64,000 nt of DNA, taken from sequence record AF234173.1; one strand, 5' to 3'. The notes under the pieces were generated by a model that saw only the letters and a list, made by a program, of their open reading frames with translations, searched no databases and was not told the DNA's origin. The DNA is from Escherichia phage P1. A program made the translations under genes and the position numbers. Below, piece by piece: positions 18 to 24,552 of the stretch; the stretch's first letter is position 1, and each line of letters starts with the position of its first letter.

Positions 18-435
18 ATTAAGGGTTATTGAATATGATCAATTTACCTGTAAATCCATACAGTTCAATACCTTAGCAGGTCAAATAGTGACCACTTGAT
101 CATTTGATCAAGGTTGCGCTACGTAAAATCTGTGAAAAATTGGCGGTGTTAGTCCTACAGATTTCGCGTAGCGCACTTAGCACCACCAATCAATCAGAGG
201 TGAAAAATGGGATATTCAACTGCTAAAGTGTCCACTCATCTTGAGCTTGAGAAAAACCGTGGTTACTGGCGGGCAAAAGGGTTTGATCGTGATAGTTGCC
301 AACTGTCATTATCGCGCGGTGAAGAGAAAATAGAACGCACGCGCGGTCGCTGGCGTTTCTATGACGAGAACCATAAACAGGTAAAGGCAGAGCCGATCCT
401 GTACACTTTACTTAAAACCATTATCTGAGTGTTAA

Positions 436-1467
436 ATGTCCAATTTACTGACCGTACACCAAAATTTGCCTGCATTACCGGTCGATGCAACGAGTGATGA
501 GGTTCGCAAGAACCTGATGGACATGTTCAGGGATCGCCAGGCGTTTTCTGAGCATACCTGGAAAATGCTTCTGTCCGTTTGCCGGTCGTGGGCGGCATGG
601 TGCAAGTTGAATAACCGGAAATGGTTTCCCGCAGAACCTGAAGATGTTCGCGATTATCTTCTATATCTTCAGGCGCGCGGTCTGGCAGTAAAAACTATCC
701 AGCAACATTTGGGCCAGCTAAACATGCTTCATCGTCGGTCCGGGCTGCCACGACCAAGTGACAGCAATGCTGTTTCACTGGTTATGCGGCGGATCCGAAA
801 AGAAAACGTTGATGCCGGTGAACGTGCAAAACAGGCTCTAGCGTTCGAACGCACTGATTTCGACCAGGTTCGTTCACTCATGGAAAATAGCGATCGCTGC
901 CAGGATATACGTAATCTGGCATTTCTGGGGATTGCTTATAACACCCTGTTACGTATAGCCGAAATTGCCAGGATCAGGGTTAAAGATATCTCACGTACTG
1001 ACGGTGGGAGAATGTTAATCCATATTGGCAGAACGAAAACGCTGGTTAGCACCGCAGGTGTAGAGAAGGCACTTAGCCTGGGGGTAACTAAACTGGTCGA
1101 GCGATGGATTTCCGTCTCTGGTGTAGCTGATGATCCGAATAACTACCTGTTTTGCCGGGTCAGAAAAAATGGTGTTGCCGCGCCATCTGCCACCAGCCAG
1201 CTATCAACTCGCGCCCTGGAAGGGATTTTTGAAGCAACTCATCGATTGATTTACGGCGCTAAGGATGACTCTGGTCAGAGATACCTGGCCTGGTCTGGAC
1301 ACAGTGCCCGTGTCGGAGCCGCGCGAGATATGGCCCGCGCTGGAGTTTCAATACCGGAGATCATGCAAGCTGGTGGCTGGACCAATGTAAATATTGTCAT
1401 GAACTATATCCGTAACCTGGATAGTGAAACAGGGGCAATGGTGCGCCTGCTGGAAGATGGCGATTAG
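436..1467 (+). CDS. cre: Cre tyrosine site-specific recombinase
   Basis: 343-aa ORF, ATG start; protein recognised as Cre (MSNLLTVHQNLPALPVDATSDEVRKNLMDMF...). Confidence 0.97.
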   Translation: MSNLLTVHQNLPALPVDATSDEVRKNLMDMFRDRQAFSEHTWKMLLSVCRSWAAWCKLNNRKWFPAEPEDVRDYLLYLQARGLAVKTIQQHLGQLNMLHRRSGLPRPSDSNAVSLVMRRIRKENVDAGERAKQALAFERTDFDQVRSLMENSDRCQDIRNLAFLGIAYNTLLRIAEIARIRVKDISRTDGGRMLIHIGRTKTLVSTAGVEKALSLGVTKLVERWISVSGVADDPNNYLFCRVRKNGVAAPSATSQLSTRALEGIFEATHRLIYGAKDDSGQRYLAWSGHSARVGAARDMARAGVSIPEIMQAGGWTNVNIVMNYIRNLDSETGAMVRLLEDGD

Positions 1468-1517
1468 CCATTAACGCGTAAATGATTGCTATAATTATTT
1501 GATATTTATGGTGACAT

Positions 1518-1829
1518 ATGAGAAAGGATTTCAACATCGACGGAAAATATGTAGTGCTGTCTGTAAGCACTAATATTCAGTCGCCAGCCGTCATTGTCAC
1601 TGTAAAGCTGAGCGATAGAATGCCTGATATTGACTCAATATCCGTTGCGTTTCCTGTCAAAAGTATGCGTAGTGCTGAACATTTCGTGATGAATGCCACC
1701 GAGGAAGAAGCACGGCGCGGTTTTGCTAAAGTGATGTCTGAGTTTGGCGAACTCTTGGGTAAGGTTAACAATGTCCTTTCAATCAGTTCAGCAAGGTCCA
1801 AAGCGTTAACAGCTTCCATGATGAAATAA
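1518..1829 (+). CDS. cra: Small protein downstream of cre (Cra-like), function unknown
   Basis: 103-aa ORF directly after cre; symbol from memory of the P1 map. Confidence 0.45.
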   Translation: MRKDFNIDGKYVVLSVSTNIQSPAVIVTVKLSDRMPDIDSISVAFPVKSMRSAEHFVMNATEEEARRGFAKVMSEFGELLGKVNNVLSISSARSKALTASMMK

Positions 1830-1835
1830 AAAAAA

Positions 1836-1854
1836 GCCTGGCAAGGAGCCAGGC
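1836..1854. terminator. Hairpin GCCTGGC-aagga-GCCAGGC after cra, preceded by an A8 run
   Basis: Perfect 7-bp stem; no U-tract on + strand, U-tract on - strand. Confidence 0.35.
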
Positions 1855-1961
1855 TGCACAAAAGAGCGGGTTTGTATTCCGCATCCAATCAATCAAGAAG
1901 GAGTATAGCACACAGGTACTGAAGTGAAAAAATGTGATTCGCGATAAACAAAATATCTATC

Positions 1962-1991
1962 ATTGCTCTAATTGATTGCTATAATTGAGCC
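1962..1991 (+). promoter_or_regulatory. Two overlapping C1-operator-like sites (ATTGCTCTAATTGATTG and ATTGCTATAATTGAGCC) with embedded TATAAT; putative ref promoter/operator (Op2)
   Basis: Match to the C1 operator consensus ATTGCTCTAATAAATTT with 3-4 mismatches; the 13-bp GATTGCTATAATT is also present at 1484-1496. Confidence 0.5.
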
Positions 1992-2045
1992 GCAGTTTTT
2001 GTCAACTACGAAGACGTTGCCATTACTTCACTCCTTGACATCATT

Positions 2046-2071
2046 GGCGGCCATTAGGCCGCCTTTTTTTT
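2046..2071 (+). terminator. Intrinsic terminator-like hairpin GGCGGCC-atta-GGCCGCC followed by T8, in the ref leader
   Basis: Perfect GC-rich 7-bp stem plus 8 T; ends 5 nt before the ref ATG. Confidence 0.6.
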
Positions 2072-2076
2072 GCCAT

Positions 2077-2637
2077 ATGAAAACAATCGAACAAAAAATT
2101 GAACAGTGCCGCAAGTGGCAGAAGGCAGCCAGAGAACGAGCGATCGCTCGGCAACGGGAGAAGTTGGCTGATCCGGTCTGGCGAGAATCTCAATATCAGA
2201 AAATGCGGGATACTCTCGACCGCCGTATCGCTAAACAGAAAGAGCGCCCACCAGCCAGCAAAACGCGGAAAAGCGCGGTAAAAATAAAATCTCGTGGCTT
2301 GAAGGGGAGAACACCAACGGCGGAGGAACGGCGCATCGCCAATGCTCTTGGCGCTCTCCCCTGCATTGCCTGCTATATGCATGGAGTAATATCTAATGAG
2401 GTGTCTCTGCACCATATCGCCGGTCGTACCGCGCCGGGTTGTCATAAAAAGCAATTGCCACTTTGTAGATGGCACCACCAGCATGCAGCTCCGGCTGAAG
2501 TAAGAGAAAAATACCCATGGCTGGTCCCTGTTCATGCCGATGGTGTGGTTGGAGGCAAGAAAGAATTCACCTTGCTGAACAAGTCAGAGATGGAGTTACT
2601 GGCTGACGCCTATGAGATGGCAAACATCATGCACTAA
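2077..2637 (+). CDS. ref: Ref recombination enhancement function (HNH-type endonuclease)
   Basis: 186-aa product from ATG 2077; HNH-like motif (HHIAGRTAPGCHKKQLPLCRWHHQ); the longer 221-aa ORF in the track starts at TTG 1972 inside the promoter region. Confidence 0.85.
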   Translation: MKTIEQKIEQCRKWQKAARERAIARQREKLADPVWRESQYQKMRDTLDRRIAKQKERPPASKTRKSAVKIKSRGLKGRTPTAEERRIANALGALPCIACYMHGVISNEVSLHHIAGRTAPGCHKKQLPLCRWHHQHAAPAEVREKYPWLVPVHADGVVGGKKEFTLLNKSEMELLADAYEMANIMH

Positions 2638-2673
2638 TAAATATATTATTTTTAATGATAAATGATTGACAAC

Positions 2674-2685
2674 TGACAAGTGACT
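2674..2685 (+). promoter_or_regulatory. Late-promoter-like motif TGACAAGTGACT upstream of mat
   Basis: Member of a recurrent ACAAGTGACT / AGTCAYTTGTT motif family found 5' of late operons in this window. Confidence 0.3.
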
Positions 2686-2826
2686 TCAGTCAGAATCATC
2701 ACACGCCCGGTACGGATGGATCCCTTTTCAAATATTCCATGGACGGCACAGTCTGAGTACCGGGCGCTACCTTCAGTTGTATTGCTAAGCCGCCGCTGGT
2801 GGCTTTTCTTTTTTGTAGGGGGCGCT

Positions 2827-3468
2827 ATGGATAAGAAAATATGCGTTGTTTCGATGAGCGTCGGCAAACCGGCGTCAATGACTGCTGCATGGATCAATAA
2901 CGAGCTGATAATGGCTGAGCGGACCAGCTACCCTGAACGCCGCCGCGATATGGAACTCCAGCTGCTGCGCGAATTGCGAGAAAAAGAGGAAAAGGGTTTT
3001 ATCGTGCTGGTGGAAGAGGAAAACAGCTTTATTACTGGACGAGTTGGCCAGCGTGTAAGGTTGCGTGATCCCTTCATGAACGGTAGACCGGTACTGATTG
3101 AAGCAATGCAGATTTACAAGGAATTGGAACGCCAGAAAGCGATCAAGTTACCGCGCAAGGAATCCGGCAAATACATCCTCCACCAAAGCATCTTCGATTC
3201 CGAACATGACAAAAAAGGCGATGAATTTTTCAACATCAACTGGAGCGAAATAACGACAGAGCACGTTCTGACGTTGTTATGCTGCTTCGCAACGGAATAC
3301 AACAACGTTGCAAACTCCGACTACATCAGGGCAATGGCTGGAGAAGTTGAGCCACGCCAGGAACCATCGTTACTAAGTCCACTGATTAACATAATTCGCG
3401 GCACACAGAGACTTGCGGAAAAAAGCGTTCCACATGGAATCTTAACTGGAAAGGGAAACTATTTTTAA
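2827..3468 (+). CDS. mat: Mat-like protein (maturation control)
   Basis: ORF with ATG at 2827 preceded by AGGGGG; alternative in-frame starts at 2716 (ATG) and 2680 (GTG). Confidence 0.55.
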   Translation: MDKKICVVSMSVGKPASMTAAWINNELIMAERTSYPERRRDMELQLLRELREKEEKGFIVLVEEENSFITGRVGQRVRLRDPFMNGRPVLIEAMQIYKELERQKAIKLPRKESGKYILHQSIFDSEHDKKGDEFFNINWSEITTEHVLTLLCCFATEYNNVANSDYIRAMAGEVEPRQEPSLLSPLINIIRGTQRLAEKSVPHGILTGKGNYF

Positions 3469-3510
3469 CGACCTGAGCGCCACTTCTTTCAGGTCGTGTT
3501 GGATGTCATA

Positions 3511-3534
3511 AAAAGGAGGTTTTCACCTCCTTTT
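3511..3534. terminator. Bidirectional terminator between convergent mat and res
   Basis: AAAAGGAGGT-tttc-ACCTCCTTTT: stem flanked by A and T runs on both sides. Confidence 0.6.
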
Positions 3535-3543
3535 AAACTGGAA

Positions 3544-6456
3544 TTATGGTAATGCGCTCTTGATTAACTGATAAATATCATCATTAGCAAACTGCGTTTT
3601 GAATTCAACTTTAACAGACTGACTTATTTGATTGAAAAGCGCCTGGGCATGTTCAATTTTCTTTTTTTCTTCAAGCCGTAAACTATCCTTACTATCTACG
3701 TTTTTTGTTTCAATGATAAAGTTAAGATAATCACCTTCTGCTGTTTTTACAACATAAGCAAAATCGGGTGAGTAAGTGTATCCACCAGCTACCGGGATCT
3801 TAATAGAATTCTTCGGTATCTTTGAAAAAACAACAACAGACTGGATCTCTCTATCTGTTATATTACGCCTTTCAAGCTCTGAATCATAAAAAACTTCTTC
3901 AAAAAGATAAGTATCTAATGGTGCTTTTGAATTATCCTGTAATACACCAAGATCACTTGATAATACCTCGTCTAGAGGCTTACCATCAGCATTTGTGAAC
4001 TTTGTGGGATGAATTGAACCCGAAATCAAATTATATCCGAGGCTGAATTTATTAAACGAATTGTTCAACAAATACTTACTAAAACCAGATTTAATTTTTC
4101 TGATTGTTTGAATATTCAGGTATTCAGTGATATTAATAGTGTCTTTTATATCACAAAAAACTTTATGTAAAGTATCGTGTTTAACAAAAATAGTCTGTGA
4201 TAAGTTATCGAGAAACTCTCGATAACTCATTGTGTTTAGCTTAGCAAAGTCATCGTCATCACTAACAATGCTTTTCGACATTGCCATATCATTGTGGATG
4301 TAAATTTTATCAATGCGAGTATGAACGCCTGATTTGGTAAATCGTTCTGTTTCTTCGAGCATGAATGACTTGAAAATGGATAAAAACTCATTTTCACTGT
4401 TTATTTTGTACTCAATCACCGCTTTTTGATTGATTAATTCCCATAGTTCTTTCAGCTCACTGAACTTACCAACACGCATTTTAGTGCGTCTTTTTCCATC
4501 AGTAGCTTTTTTGATTTTACCTGGTTTCACTCCTATAGGGAATGCTGCTGGATATTTGGATTTTAAGCGGCTGTAGGCATCTGAATCTTTGAAATTATCA
4601 TTGTCATCAATGATTTCATCATTGAAAAGTTCATTCATTAGTGCTCTGGATGAAAGCTCAGGATACTGAGCCCTGATTTGTTCCTTAAGCTCTTGAGTAA
4701 ACTTACTTGGAACCCTTTCTTTGAAAGAACTCTCATTGACCTCTTTAACAAGTGAGTCAACAAAATCCTTTTCTGTAAAATCGACATAATATTTAAGGGT
4801 AAAATTGCGGTCTTTCACTCGACACATGTATTCATTCACAGGAAGACGCAAACCGCGCCCTACCTCTTGAAGCTTGGATGTGGTACTACCGCTCGAACGG
4901 AGCTTACAGATCTGAAAGACATTAGGATTATCCCATCCCTCACGCAACGTCCATTTGGAGAAAATGAAACGACGTGGATTATCTAAAGACAGCAAAAGCT
5001 CTTTGTCATGAAGGATTTCGTTGATTTCCTTCTCGATTTTATCATCCTTATCACTGTTATCTTTTGAAAAATAACCGCCATGAACGGAAGATATATCTTT
5101 AACTGTTTTTTCAAGATAGTTACTATAAAACTCATCTTTTTCTATTTTTAACAGTTCATTAGCTTCTGCCAAAACATATTCTTCGAACTTAGCTTTCAAA
5201 CTTCCGGCAATATTATTACCGTCACGATAACCTTCAATATCATCAATAAAGAAAAGAGTAAGAGGCTTTATGCGTGGCCTTTGTGTCAGAAACTCTTTTT
5301 CTAACTTAAAGTGTTCTTTGATAGCTTTCCTCATCATGCTGTCAGCAAGTGTCTGATCGTAAGAATAGGGGTTTATTGAGCAACCAATTTTTAGCTCAAT
5401 ACCATTACTCAACACTACTGTATTCTTGCCTAAGGCATCAAGAGTTAAATCGTGAATAGCACTATGTGTCTTAGATAGAGATTCACCTTTTGTTAACTTA
5501 AATAAAGTTTTCTTGTTATTTTCATTTAGCTCAAATGTAACTTCTTCCCCATCAGATTTAATGAACTTTAGGTTGGCGTCACCATCACCAACAATATCCT
5601 CAATGTACGCATCAATACCTTTAACAAGGTCTTCATTAAATGCATCCACAGCTGTAAGTCGATAAACTAAATTCTTATAGCCTTCACTAAAGGTCGCACC
5701 GTAGCGGATAATATATTGAGCATTAAACTTCTCTATATTTTCCCATGTCTTTTTACCAGTAGGAAATTTATGTGGTTCATCAATGATAATGAATGGTTTT
5801 ACCGCACCAAGAGCTGAAAAGGGAGAATCAAAATGATTGTCAAGCAAGCCAACATCATAAGTGGAATTTAAATTCTTAGAGTGAATCATTCCCGTGTTAA
5901 TAACAAGAACGTGTATATATTTCTTATTGAAATTACTAGCTTCAACAAAATCATGTATAGCTTGAGGCATATACGATTTTGTGCTTTTACCGGCATTTTT
6001 CTGACTTTCAACAACGTAAGTCTTTATTTCACGCTCATAATCATCTCTAAAGTGTTCTTTTAACGCATCGCTTTTCAAAAAGTTCACTGTTCCAGCTTTG
6101 ATCGATAGAGTAGGAACAATAATGATAAACTTATTAATGCCAAATGATTTGTTCAGATCAAAAATTGTTTTAGTGTAGGTATACGTTTTACCTGTACCTG
6201 TCTCCATAGAAACATCAATTACGTTGCTTCTAGCATCGTAATTATTTTTTACATGTTCAATACCATTGAGTTCCTGAACTTTTTTTATATTTTTATAGTA
6301 TTGCTGTTCAGTAAGCCGTAATTCTGGATTAACTAACAGGCGAATAGAAACATTATCCTCCTGATGAGATGTCGCGGAAACAAAAACGTTCATCACCGCA
6401 TCGACACCTGCTTTCTGATGCGGTAAGTTCTTTTCGAATGTGAACCCTTTTGACAT
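3544..6456 (-). CDS. res: Type III restriction enzyme Res subunit (EcoP1I-like)
   Basis: 970-aa AT-rich ORF with helicase-type motifs, ATG at 6456; size and position match P1 res. Confidence 0.93.
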   Translation of the reverse strand: MSKGFTFEKNLPHQKAGVDAVMNVFVSATSHQEDNVSIRLLVNPELRLTEQQYYKNIKKVQELNGIEHVKNNYDARSNVIDVSMETGTGKTYTYTKTIFDLNKSFGINKFIIIVPTLSIKAGTVNFLKSDALKEHFRDDYEREIKTYVVESQKNAGKSTKSYMPQAIHDFVEASNFNKKYIHVLVINTGMIHSKNLNSTYDVGLLDNHFDSPFSALGAVKPFIIIDEPHKFPTGKKTWENIEKFNAQYIIRYGATFSEGYKNLVYRLTAVDAFNEDLVKGIDAYIEDIVGDGDANLKFIKSDGEEVTFELNENNKKTLFKLTKGESLSKTHSAIHDLTLDALGKNTVVLSNGIELKIGCSINPYSYDQTLADSMMRKAIKEHFKLEKEFLTQRPRIKPLTLFFIDDIEGYRDGNNIAGSLKAKFEEYVLAEANELLKIEKDEFYSNYLEKTVKDISSVHGGYFSKDNSDKDDKIEKEINEILHDKELLLSLDNPRRFIFSKWTLREGWDNPNVFQICKLRSSGSTTSKLQEVGRGLRLPVNEYMCRVKDRNFTLKYYVDFTEKDFVDSLVKEVNESSFKERVPSKFTQELKEQIRAQYPELSSRALMNELFNDEIIDDNDNFKDSDAYSRLKSKYPAAFPIGVKPGKIKKATDGKRRTKMRVGKFSELKELWELINQKAVIEYKINSENEFLSIFKSFMLEETERFTKSGVHTRIDKIYIHNDMAMSKSIVSDDDDFAKLNTMSYREFLDNLSQTIFVKHDTLHKVFCDIKDTINITEYLNIQTIRKIKSGFSKYLLNNSFNKFSLGYNLISGSIHPTKFTNADGKPLDEVLSSDLGVLQDNSKAPLDTYLFEEVFYDSELERRNITDREIQSVVVFSKIPKNSIKIPVAGGYTYSPDFAYVVKTAEGDYLNFIIETKNVDSKDSLRLEEKKKIEHAQALFNQISQSVKVEFKTQFANDDIYQLIKSALP

Positions 6457-6502
6457 GATTAGTTCCTTACCACTAAATCTAACTCAATAGATTTTTTGTT
6501 AG

Positions 6503-7697
<1,195 letters not shown>

Positions 7698-21539: not shown

Positions 21540-21736
21540 ATGTGTAAAAAACGACTGAAAGAAAAGCGGTGGTCCAGACGCCGACAAAAGCACGAACTCG
21601 CAAACAAACGCCAAAGTTGGCAATGGCACGCGCTTTTCACGAAAAGAACACCCCGAGATATTGCTTTCGCTGGTGGGAAAACATTCCTGACCCACCTGAA
21701 GGCGCAATACATCAGTTTTTAAGCAGAGAAAAGACT

Positions 21737-22531
21737 ATGACAGCACAAAATACTAAAACCATTCAATACCGCCTACGTAATGGCCAGAGTGTCGAAGTGA
21801 CCATCAATAATGATGGAGTGCCAGGCGAAAAGGTTTCTATCTCCGATCTGGCTATCGAAAAAACCATCATGTGCCACCTTGGCTTTACTGAAGAAGTGAG
21901 CAAAAAGCATGGTGTAGCTATCTGGCGCACAATGGATACTGGAATGCGCAGATTCATTACTGCTCGTACCCCTGGTATGACCATGATGGACCTCATGCAG
22001 ATTGCGCCGCTGTTTGAGTGTGAACCTTTGGATGTATTCAGCAATCCAGCTATCTGCCAGCAGTTATATGGTGAGATGAAACTCGCGGTTACCCCCATTG
22101 TGCTGCATGAAGGATCGCTTGCTGGCGTATGGAAAGTAGAGCGAATTTCAAGCTACATGCCCTTCCACTTCCATGTCAACGGCGTAATCACTGGTGAAAA
22201 TCAACCTGTTTCCGTTACAAAGTCAGACCTCAAGCGCGCAATTCTTGAAGCAAGTTGTCGAGTTATCGGCCTGGGCAAACAGTCTTATGTTTGCTTCCCC
22301 GCAGGCCCAGAAGGCCCGGCTGAAATACTGACGATGGATGCCGATCTGCTCTGGCAAATAGAGTTTATGATTGGGAAAAGCATCATCCGAGCTGAAGAAC
22401 TCGATCAGTACATTACCTGCACGATGACGGATGAAGTCAAAAGTGTGGCTATAGCCAATGCCAGGAACCTGTGTCGTACTGCATTGGCAGAGCTGCAAGA
22501 AAACACCACGGAAGAGGTGGAAAGTGATTAA
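21737..22531 (+). CDS. isaA: IsaA, IS1-adjacent protein of unknown function
   Basis: ORF ending 86 bp before the IS1 target duplication; start uncertain (ATG 21737, alternatives ATG 21623 or GTG 21569). Confidence 0.5.
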   Translation: MTAQNTKTIQYRLRNGQSVEVTINNDGVPGEKVSISDLAIEKTIMCHLGFTEEVSKKHGVAIWRTMDTGMRRFITARTPGMTMMDLMQIAPLFECEPLDVFSNPAICQQLYGEMKLAVTPIVLHEGSLAGVWKVERISSYMPFHFHVNGVITGENQPVSVTKSDLKRAILEASCRVIGLGKQSYVCFPAGPEGPAEILTMDADLLWQIEFMIGKSIIRAEELDQYITCTMTDEVKSVAIANARNLCRTALAELQENTTEEVESD

Positions 22532-22640
22532 TTTTTACTAGAATAAAAAGGGGTGCCAGAGAGCACCCTGATAATACGAAATTAAAGGGAAATAAATTAC
22601 ATGAAGTGTAATTCTTTGCCCTCTGGGTAATGACTCAAAC

Positions 22641-23144
22641 TTATTGATAGTGTTTTATGTTCAGATAATGCCCGATGACTTTGTCATGCAGCTCCACCGA
22701 TTTTGAGAACGACAGCGACTTCCGTCCCAGCCGTGCCAGGTGCTGCCTCAGATTCAGGTTATGCCGCTCAATTCGCTGCGTATATCGCTTGCTGATTACG
22801 TGCAGCTTTCCCTTCAGGCGGGATTCATACAGCGGCCAGCCATCCGTCATCCATATCACCACGTCAAAGGGTGACAGCAGGCTCATAAGACGCCCCAGCG
22901 TCGCCATCGTGCGTTCACCGAATACGTGCGCAACAACCGTCTTCCGGAGCCTGTCATACGCGTAAAACAGCCAGCGCTGGCGCGATTTAGCCCCGACGTA
23001 TCCCCACTGTTCGTCCATTTCCGCGCAGACGATGACGTCACTGCCCGGCTGTATGCGCGAGGTTACCGACTGCGGCCTGAGTTTTTTAAATGGCGGAAAA
23101 TCGTGTTGAGGCCAACGCCCATAATGCGGGCGGTTGCCCGGCAT
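22641..23144 (-). CDS. insB: IS1 InsB (transposase part, expressed as InsAB' by frameshift)
   Basis: 167-aa ORF recognised as IS1 InsB. Confidence 0.9.
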
Positions 23145-23338
23145 CCAACGCCATTCATGGCCATATCAATGATTTTCTGGTGCGTACCGGGTTGAGAAGC
23201 GGTGTAAGTGAACTGCAGTTGCCATGTTTTACGGCAGTGAGAGCAGAGATAGCGCTGATGTCCGGCGGTGCTTTTGCCGTTACGCACCACCCCGTCAGTA
23301 GCTGAACAGGAGGGACAGCTGATAGAAACAGAAGCCAC
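23063..23338 (-). CDS. insA: IS1 InsA (transposition inhibitor)
   Basis: 91-aa ORF with zinc-finger CxxC..CxxC N-terminus, recognised as IS1 InsA. Confidence 0.9.
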
Positions 23339-23526
23339 TGGAGCACCTCAAAAACACCATCATACACTAAATCAGTAAGTTGGCAGCATCACCTGCCCTC
23401 TGAATATGCAATGATGGTTAGACAAGCAAGATAGGGCGAATTAAAATTAATCAAGAGTCACTTTGTTAAGATGCGTAACATCACTTTAACACTTTATGCT
23501 TGTCATGATATTTGCTTGGAAGCCTC

Positions 23527-24132
23527 ATGAATACATATTCTGATAAAATACACAACCTTATAGATATAGCCAAATTAGCTGTGGCCATGAGGGAACATAG
23601 GTATTTTTTCGCACTTCGTCGAGGAATAGATGTTAATTTTTGTGCTGATTTAAACGGGAGTGGTACACAAGGGATATTCATAAGAAAAAAAAGTTTTAAC
23701 GCGTATGAGCCAAGTTTTATTGAAGTAATTTTTGAACCCACTCATAAAAACGATGATTCATTTCTATACGAAGAGGACCTTACTACCGATCAACGAAAAG
23801 ACTACGAACCTAGTATTAACAGAGGAAAACATCGATTCGTTGCCCAACGTGCTAAACTAAATCTCGACTGGGACAGTAATGAAATCCAACAATGGCGTTT
23901 GGATATTGAGCGACTTTCTAAACCACACAACACTCTTAATGACTGGTTAGAAAATGATTCTGAGATAATGATAATACATCTCTGCGGCGGTTATAGGTTC
24001 CGTGAACCAGTGATACTCTCTCAAAGAGACATTAAAAAATATGTAGCTTCAGGATTGACTCTGGAAGACTTAAAAAATCGGCTAAAGTGCTCAATATGTG
24101 GTGAGCGAAACGCCAAAATTAAAGTTTTTTGA
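23527..24132 (+). CDS. isaB: IsaB, AT-rich orphan protein next to IS1, function unknown
   Basis: 201-aa ORF from ATG 23527 preceded by GGAAG; strongly AT-rich compared with flanks; C-terminal CSICGERN motif. Confidence 0.55.
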   Translation: MNTYSDKIHNLIDIAKLAVAMREHRYFFALRRGIDVNFCADLNGSGTQGIFIRKKSFNAYEPSFIEVIFEPTHKNDDSFLYEEDLTTDQRKDYEPSINRGKHRFVAQRAKLNLDWDSNEIQQWRLDIERLSKPHNTLNDWLENDSEIMIIHLCGGYRFREPVILSQRDIKKYVASGLTLEDLKNRLKCSICGERNAKIKVF

Positions 24133-24243
24133 TCTACTTTAATAGGAAATGGCTTGCTTCCATAACCTAAAGCAAGCCACTACACATTTACCTTAAGCAC
24201 ACGATAACATGCCAGAACAGGTTATTTTTGCACTATCAGGTAG

Positions 24244-24552
24244 TTAATATACTATCTGGTCTACATGATCACCAAAATCATCGTCGTCGTCCTCATCGCC
24301 ACCATCTACAACAGGCCAATCAACAAACCAGCCAGCGTAAAGATGCAGCGTTCGGAGAACATCACTTGCGGGAGCATCAAGGGTGTCAACGAATCCCATA
24401 TAGCTATTGGGATTTGCTCCAGCTATGGCTTCAGCGATCATGTCCTCGGTAATGTCACCGGAGATAATGCTTAAACGCCCGGAAACTTCTTCATTATCAT
24501 CAAATTCGATAATGGCATCTCCGCCTAATGGCGCTGCGATTTTAATCTGCAT
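24244..24552 (-). CDS. Small acidic protein at the distal end of the darA operon (possibly hxr)
   Basis: 102-aa ORF, ATG start, overlaps the ddrB stop by 11 nt; acidic tail DGGDEDDDDDFGD. Confidence 0.45.
   Translation of the reverse strand: MQIKIAAPLGGDAIIEFDDNEEVSGRLSIISGDITEDMIAEAIAGANPNSYMGFVDTLDAPASDVLRTLHLYAGWFVDWPVVDGGDEDDDDDFGDHVDQIVY

Follow-up and report, generated by a model that had tools for sequence, protein, structure and literature searches.

The resident IS1 of bacteriophage P1: a simple insertion between isaA and isaB that appears to have kept its mobility

The IS1 copy of phage P1 was already known in 1978, and it is through this copy that resistance genes flanked by IS1 classically enter P1, as in P1Cm/Tn9. 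According to Iida, Meyer and Arber, P1Cm/Tn9 and the P1-R hybrids reportedly arose by recombination of IS1-flanked DNA into this resident copy. The original description of IS1 in P1 (Iida, Meyer and Arber 1978) and the P1 genome paper (Lobocka et al.) are both cited in PMC12428005, which also covers the frameshift mechanism of the IS1 transposase and the length and organisation of its InsAB' product. In the literature IS1 is named a signature element of P1 and isaA-IS1-isaB a variable hot spot, and the derivative P1 c1-100 Tn9 is written as IS1::Tn9. The same locus is the RD-2 of P1-like phage-plasmids, an entry hot spot for resistance genes that include blaSHV-2 in RCS47; the RD-2 papers describe replacement of the whole module, and the exact empty site and the mobility of an IS1 with a mutant end are not reported there.

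With the IS1 isoforms of E. coli K-12 and R100 (IS1A/IS1B/IS1R, ISfinder IS1 family) the P1 copy shares a length of 768 bp, terminal repeats starting with GGT, insA and insB' joined through an A6C motif, a 232-aa InsAB' and a target duplication of 8-9 bp. It differs from them by a C-to-A change at position 12 of the right terminal repeat (IRR) and by a few internal differences that are patchily common to other isoforms. Identity to the top matches in other phage records is 98.5-99.1%, falling to about 87-92% for distant IS1 isoforms, and between the P1 element and the other IS1 copies examined there are 4-8 differences.

The DNA analysed here, hereafter the window, is a 64-kb stretch of Escherichia phage P1 (64,000 nt, AF234173.1) and corresponds to bases 1-64000 of the P1 reference genome. 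Its positions 21600-24400 are 100% identical to positions 21600-24400 of AF234172/NC_005856 (phage P1 mod749::IS5 c1-100), a comparison that covered this 2.8-kb stretch and the position of IS5 out of the 64 kb, and the gene order lyz-ssb-isaA-IS1-isaB-hxr-ddrB agrees with the P1 reference. AF234172 annotates IS1 at 22626-23393 on the minus strand together with insA, insB, isaA and isaB; it gives the element 99% identity to the IS1 locus V00609, lists its features without a mark for a 9-bp duplication, and notes that the IS1 is 'possibly defective in transposition function due to one base substitution in the IR repeat region'. The element described below is the same object, a long-known and annotated feature, and its recovery is a rediscovery with nothing new in kind. 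What the analysis adds is the target duplication, the exact empty site in wild P1-like plasmids, evidence of mobility that argues for activity against the record's 'possibly defective', and a natural autotransporter composite that uses a P1-type copy; the value of these additions is practical rather than conceptual.

We regard it as very probable that the resident IS1 of P1 is a simple insertion in the isaA-isaB spacer that is still a working transposon, acting both as a mobile element and as portable homology. Under the proposed history, a single 768-bp IS1 would have transposed into the 218-bp AT-rich spacer, where a staggered cut and its repair would have duplicated the 9-bp target TGCCCTCTG with no gene interrupted. 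Besides InsA, the element would produce the DDE transposase InsAB' through -1 frameshifting at the A6C motif, and both of its ends would be usable despite the one-base change in IRR. Two roles would follow for it: that of a mobile element able to leave for other replicons, and that of portable homology through which IS1-flanked DNA may recombine into and out of the phage-plasmid.

The boundaries of the element, placed by direct reading and by script, coincide with those of the mobile_element IS1 in AF234172 (22626-23393, 768 bp, transposase genes on the minus strand), and in the orientation of the window it begins with GGTAATGACTCAAACTTATTGATAGTG and ends with CAGTAAGTTGGCAGCATCACC. Direct reading and a repeat finder place the two copies of TGCCCTCTG at 22617-22625 and 23394-23402, a direct repeat of 100% identity with a spacing of 777 nt, so that the perfect 9-bp target duplication put forward in the original prediction holds on re-inspection. 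The insB-distal end, IRR (22626-22648, at the left in the window), reads GGTAATGACTCAAACTTATTGAT; the insA-proximal end, IRL (23371-23393, by script and AF234172 annotation), reads GGTGATGCTGCCAACTTACTGAT and lies as its reverse complement at the right end, where it includes the weak IS1 promoter region. A promoter-like site was found within the IRL side of the element at 23386-23359 on the minus strand. Comparison of the two terminal repeats gives a match of 17/23, against 18/23 with a canonical IRR, and the substituted base is the A in place of C at IS1 position 12 (22637), in the repeat that GenBank labels 'terminal IR of IS1; mutant'. The element had been called canonical, a description that fits its 768-bp length but overlooked this substitution. 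One IS1 copy is present in the 64-kb window and a Tn9-like IS1 composite is therefore absent from it, the composite form being confined to relatives.

The coding content leaves little doubt about the identity of the element, which had been recognised correctly as IS1. On the minus strand, insA (23063-23338) specifies the 91-aa InsA repressor/DNA-binding protein, annotated as 100% identical to InsA, in which two Pfam domains score above the curated cut-offs (Zn_ribbon_InsA, PF03811, 3e-21; HTH_Tnp_IS1, PF12759, 1.7e-30). The insB frame (22641-23144, minus strand), the catalytic DDE part of InsAB', matches DDE_Tnp_IS1 (PF03400, 2.3e-78) over 131/131 profile positions. The two are joined by the motif AAAAAAC at 23081-23087 on the minus strand, where translation in the slipped frame predicts that a -1 slip would yield an open InsAB' frame of 232 aa. 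With InsA, the A6C site and the 232-aa frame all present, the coding capacity of this IS1 is, to judge from its predicted products, intact.

Whether the repeated 9-mer is a true target duplication was at first considered through its frequency. TGCCCTCTG occurs twice in the 64-kb window and nowhere beyond both IS1 flanks; 0.43 copies are expected by chance, and at least two copies appeared in 11 of 100 shuffled sequences. The count is accordingly not significant window-wide, which, together with the finding that most P1-like plasmids have the isaA side only and that the region is thus mosaic, could be taken to favour a chance repeat or flanks of different molecules joined by IS1-IS1 recombination. 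The window-wide statistic is the wrong test of a duplication, and it was replaced by the adjacency argument and the empty site. Both 9-mers abut independently defined IS1 ends exactly, for which the chance is 4^-9, or about 4e-6. A query of 1000 nt, in which 500 nt of each flank were joined with one TGCCCTCTG, matched in one piece and at 100% identity in five records of E. coli plasmids from chicken, human and soil (CP123268, CP123261, CP159151, JBRXAU010000003 and JBRXAI010000003), and at 97.5-97.7% in four more; in CP123268 the joined flanks are an exact substring that contains TGCCCTCTG once. Relatives without IS1 had been proposed as the means to define the empty site, and they do define it: since the flanks are contiguous in these plasmids, the concern that they came from different molecules falls away and the reading as a simple insertion is supported. 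A true recombinant junction at the P1 site, found in AP044772 and described below, also looks different, its left 9-mer being lost and its left flank foreign. In view of five independent records with contiguous flanks and a single 9-mer, the chance or recombinant origin of the repeat is so improbable as to be practically negligible.

The simple insertion thus supported is occupied in other plasmids as well. In AP027878 (human faeces, Viet Nam) the P1 site likewise contains an IS1, whose duplication and mutant end are those of P1; this copy differs from the P1 IS1 at four internal positions. These are IS1 positions 465, 468 and 471, three bases apart, and 507, and the variants are found mixed in other copies, a pattern indicative of gene conversion between IS1 copies following the insertion. 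More generally, the IS1 copies at the P1 site differ mutually at 4-8 positions in a patchy manner, and the IS1 sequence has therefore been altered, after it was inserted, through exchange with further copies of IS1. The earlier statement that the insertion has not since been rearranged consequently stands for the junctions but not for the internal sequence of the element.

Relatives of P1 also illustrate what a resident IS1 may lead to. In CP062860 the P1 site is taken up, in this order, by a mutant-end IS1, a 3.8-kb autotransporter gene and a second IS1 whose inner end is canonical; TGCCCTCTG stands on both outer sides of this composite of about 5.9 kb (106-6000 of the extracted locus). The P1-like plasmids in which it sits at the P1 IS1 site are swine-associated. 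In five more P1-like plasmids the right flank is matched from the first base of the duplication and the left flank lies at a separate place, and the four of these five that the E. coli genome set also contains have the mutant end; among these plasmids the composite structure was inspected directly in CP062860 alone. Like Tn9 in P1Cm or P1 c1-100 Tn9 (IS1-cat-IS1), the CP062860 composite is IS1-flanked cargo at the resident IS1 of P1. Unlike Tn9, the natural cargo is the 3.8-kb autotransporter gene and not cat, and the P1 window itself has a solo IS1 without cargo.

The two IS1 copies of the CP062860 composite differ at 6 positions, and the mutant end is found on the left copy only. Replicative transposition of the resident IS1 was considered as the source of the composite and rejected, given the 6 differing positions and the single mutant end. 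The 6 differences argue instead for recombination with foreign IS1-flanked DNA, and we infer that this recombination is the route of cargo capture. In MARGA_3 the chromosomal gene fepE (CM170101) is interrupted by a near-identical composite, in which the mutant end is one of the outer ends; an 8-bp duplication, CGAAAATC, flanks the whole, so that the composite has moved as a unit. The chromosomal and plasmid forms align in two blocks, which are 99.8% and 98.5% identical and contain small indels, and their right inner junctions differ by about 20 nt; IS1-autotransporter-IS1 looks like a composite transposon common to phage-plasmid and chromosome. A different outcome is seen in AP044772, whose IS1 (6233-7000 of the extracted locus) has a canonical IRR and keeps the right junction with TGCCCTCTG, while its left flank is a different, truncated gene without the 9-mer. 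To all appearances this left side was produced by IS1-mediated recombination or deletion, here in a P1-like plasmid from nature. The CP062860 composite and the rearranged AP044772 bear out the expectation of IS-mediated cargo capture and rearrangement at this locus, in agreement with the literature on the variable region and on Tn9 in P1.

The existence of such composites raises the alternative that the composite came first, i.e., that an IS1-cargo-IS1 unit was inserted at TGCCCTCTG and that IS1-by-IS1 recombination then deleted the cargo, leaving the solo IS1 of P1. This course of events predicts the identical 9-bp duplication and empty site, a composite with the same outer duplication and a mutant outer end is present at the P1 site, and the movement of the near-identical fepE composite as a unit means that the mutant end could have arrived within a composite. 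The internal variants, however, are distributed otherwise: the solo copies of P1 and AP027878 share G373/T376, which are found in none of the four composite copies, so that a simple left-by-right recombinant of the known composites would not yield the P1 IS1. The 6 differences and the left-only mutant end of CP062860, in turn, fit the entry of foreign DNA flanked by IS1 into a resident IS1 by recombination, the same route as is known for P1Cm/Tn9 and the P1-R hybrids. The G373/T376 variants thus mildly favour a solo IS1 that preceded the composites, and an origin by loss of cargo appears unlikely; some weight is still left on it because IS1 copies have, by their patchy differences, exchanged sequence repeatedly.

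For a solo insertion of this kind, the remaining matter is whether an IS1 with a substituted IRR is able to move, or whether it is a transposition-defective fossil that offers passive homology only. The 'possibly defective' note in GenBank, the reduction of the terminal-repeat match to 17/23 and the rarity of the variant would all suit the fossil: the C12A form of IRR occurs in 20 of the 8012 E. coli records that have such an IS1 end (49,726 places). P1-like plasmids make up six of these 20 records, and six of the other 14 were examined. In strain LY180 (NC_022364), described in the literature as an ethanol-producing derivative of E. coli W, an IS1 that is 768/768 identical to that of P1, C12A included, interrupts mlc and is flanked by the 9-bp duplication GATCCAGCA. 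In HBUT-L (CP104442), an IS1 with the same 768/768 identity, again including C12A, interrupts adiY between copies of the 9-bp duplication TGAATAATA; both elements occupy positions 1501-2268 of their extracted loci. Within the E. coli collection used for junction searches, which includes wild-type W and does not include KO11FL (NC_016902), the mlc::IS1 junctions are confined to LY180, AQ15 and SL112 and the adiY::IS1 junctions to HBUT-L and hubt-sl, and in wild-type E. coli W neither these junctions nor the C12A end was found. A third chromosomal copy with the mutant end lies in the betA-ykgH spacer of FJ_Ec_21, a strain that also has a P1-like plasmid, and is flanked by the 8-bp duplication GGATATCG. 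The mutant-end copies of the SW07164 chromosome and of the ET745 plasmid had no flanking duplication and are uninformative on transposition.

Because identical copies in mlc and adiY have new 9-bp duplications and wild-type W is without them, the 'possibly defective' IS1 of P1 appears to be mobile, and the junctions of these copies show, as far as such comparisons reach, that an element of exactly the P1 IS1 sequence has transposed using its mutant end. At least four independent sites (mlc, adiY, the betA-ykgH spacer and fepE) combine a mutant outer end with a fresh 8- or 9-bp duplication, two of the copies being 768/768 identical to that of P1, and the coding capacity is intact; an immobile fossil is therefore quite improbable. 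Another IS1 copy might in principle have supplied the transposase for the mlc and adiY insertions; for adiY, the single IS1 right end in the hubt-sl chromosome record speaks against an outside source.

We also infer that P1 was the source of the identical copies in the engineered E. coli W derivatives, which would have acquired them while the strains were being built. A Tn9/P1Cm-derived route would be an alternative; the literature searched gave no confirmation that P1 or a Tn9/P1Cm-derived construct was used in the LY180 and HBUT lineages. The broader proposition, that the P1 IS1 is fully active and escapes to chromosomes both in laboratory strains (mlc, adiY) and in nature (its mutant end being an outer end of the composite of P1-like phage-plasmids and of fepE), is one that we favour by a narrow measure. 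If it is true, work with P1 would have been overlooked as a cause of IS1 insertion mutations in engineered strains, unintended IS1 insertions may be present in strains made with P1, and the one-base IRR variant could be suggested as a single-base tracer of P1-derived IS1.

The surroundings of the insertion agree with its placement in a spacer. The left neighbour isaA (21569-22531, plus strand, annotated in AF234172) and the right neighbour isaB (23527-24132, plus strand, likewise annotated) are both intact; 85 nt separate the isaA stop codon from the left duplication and 124 nt the right duplication from the ATG of isaB. The G+C content of isaB is 36.5% and that of the isaA-isaB spacer 35-37%, against 46.9% for the window, as expected from the description of an IS1 lying between isaA and an AT-rich isaB with neither gene interrupted. 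The two neighbours had further been called orphan genes: their functions are indeed unknown, but each belongs to a PHROG phage protein family of unknown function (PHROG 2326 over residues 60-320 of IsaA, PHROG 30162 for IsaB), and they are not orphans in that respect. Searches of IsaA and IsaB found neither a Pfam domain nor a PADLOC defence-system match, and a CRISPRi screen scored insA, insB, isaA and isaB all as non-essential (PMC10695390).

The search with the joined flanks matched 345 plasmid records, most of them through the isaA part of the query, and about 300 of the 345 have the isaA side only, at 90-95% identity. In most P1-like plasmids the homology to P1 runs out at the stop codon of isaA (22531-22532) or no more than a few bases away, at positions 406/407 of the query and, in some records, at position 422. 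The isaB module is rare and in some plasmids stands next to another left neighbour. The isaA stop would thus mark a sharp module boundary within the known variable region.

The original prediction counted resident copies of both IS1 and IS5 in this replicon, and both are present. The IS5, at 6503-7697 of the window, is 1195 bp long, with the terminal repeats GGAAGGTGCGAACAAG and GGAAGGTGCGAATAAG and a 4-bp duplication, TTAG. By its position and by the title of AF234172 it is the mod749::IS5 mutation of the sequenced strain, and we take it not to be a constituent of wild-type P1.

Two minor observations concern isaA and its downstream region. The annotated start of the gene (GTG 21569, 320 aa) is probably too far upstream, because the RefSeq relatives have a 264-aa form, equivalent to a start at ATG 21737, and the PHROG match begins at residue 60. 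Just downstream of isaA lies a G+C-rich hairpin at 22551-22568 (GGGTGC...GCACCC), and the IS1 site falls between it and a predicted isaB promoter at 23419-23447. The hairpin scores as a terminator on the minus strand only, where CTTTTTATTC comes next, and in this orientation it would block transcripts running from IS1 toward isaA.
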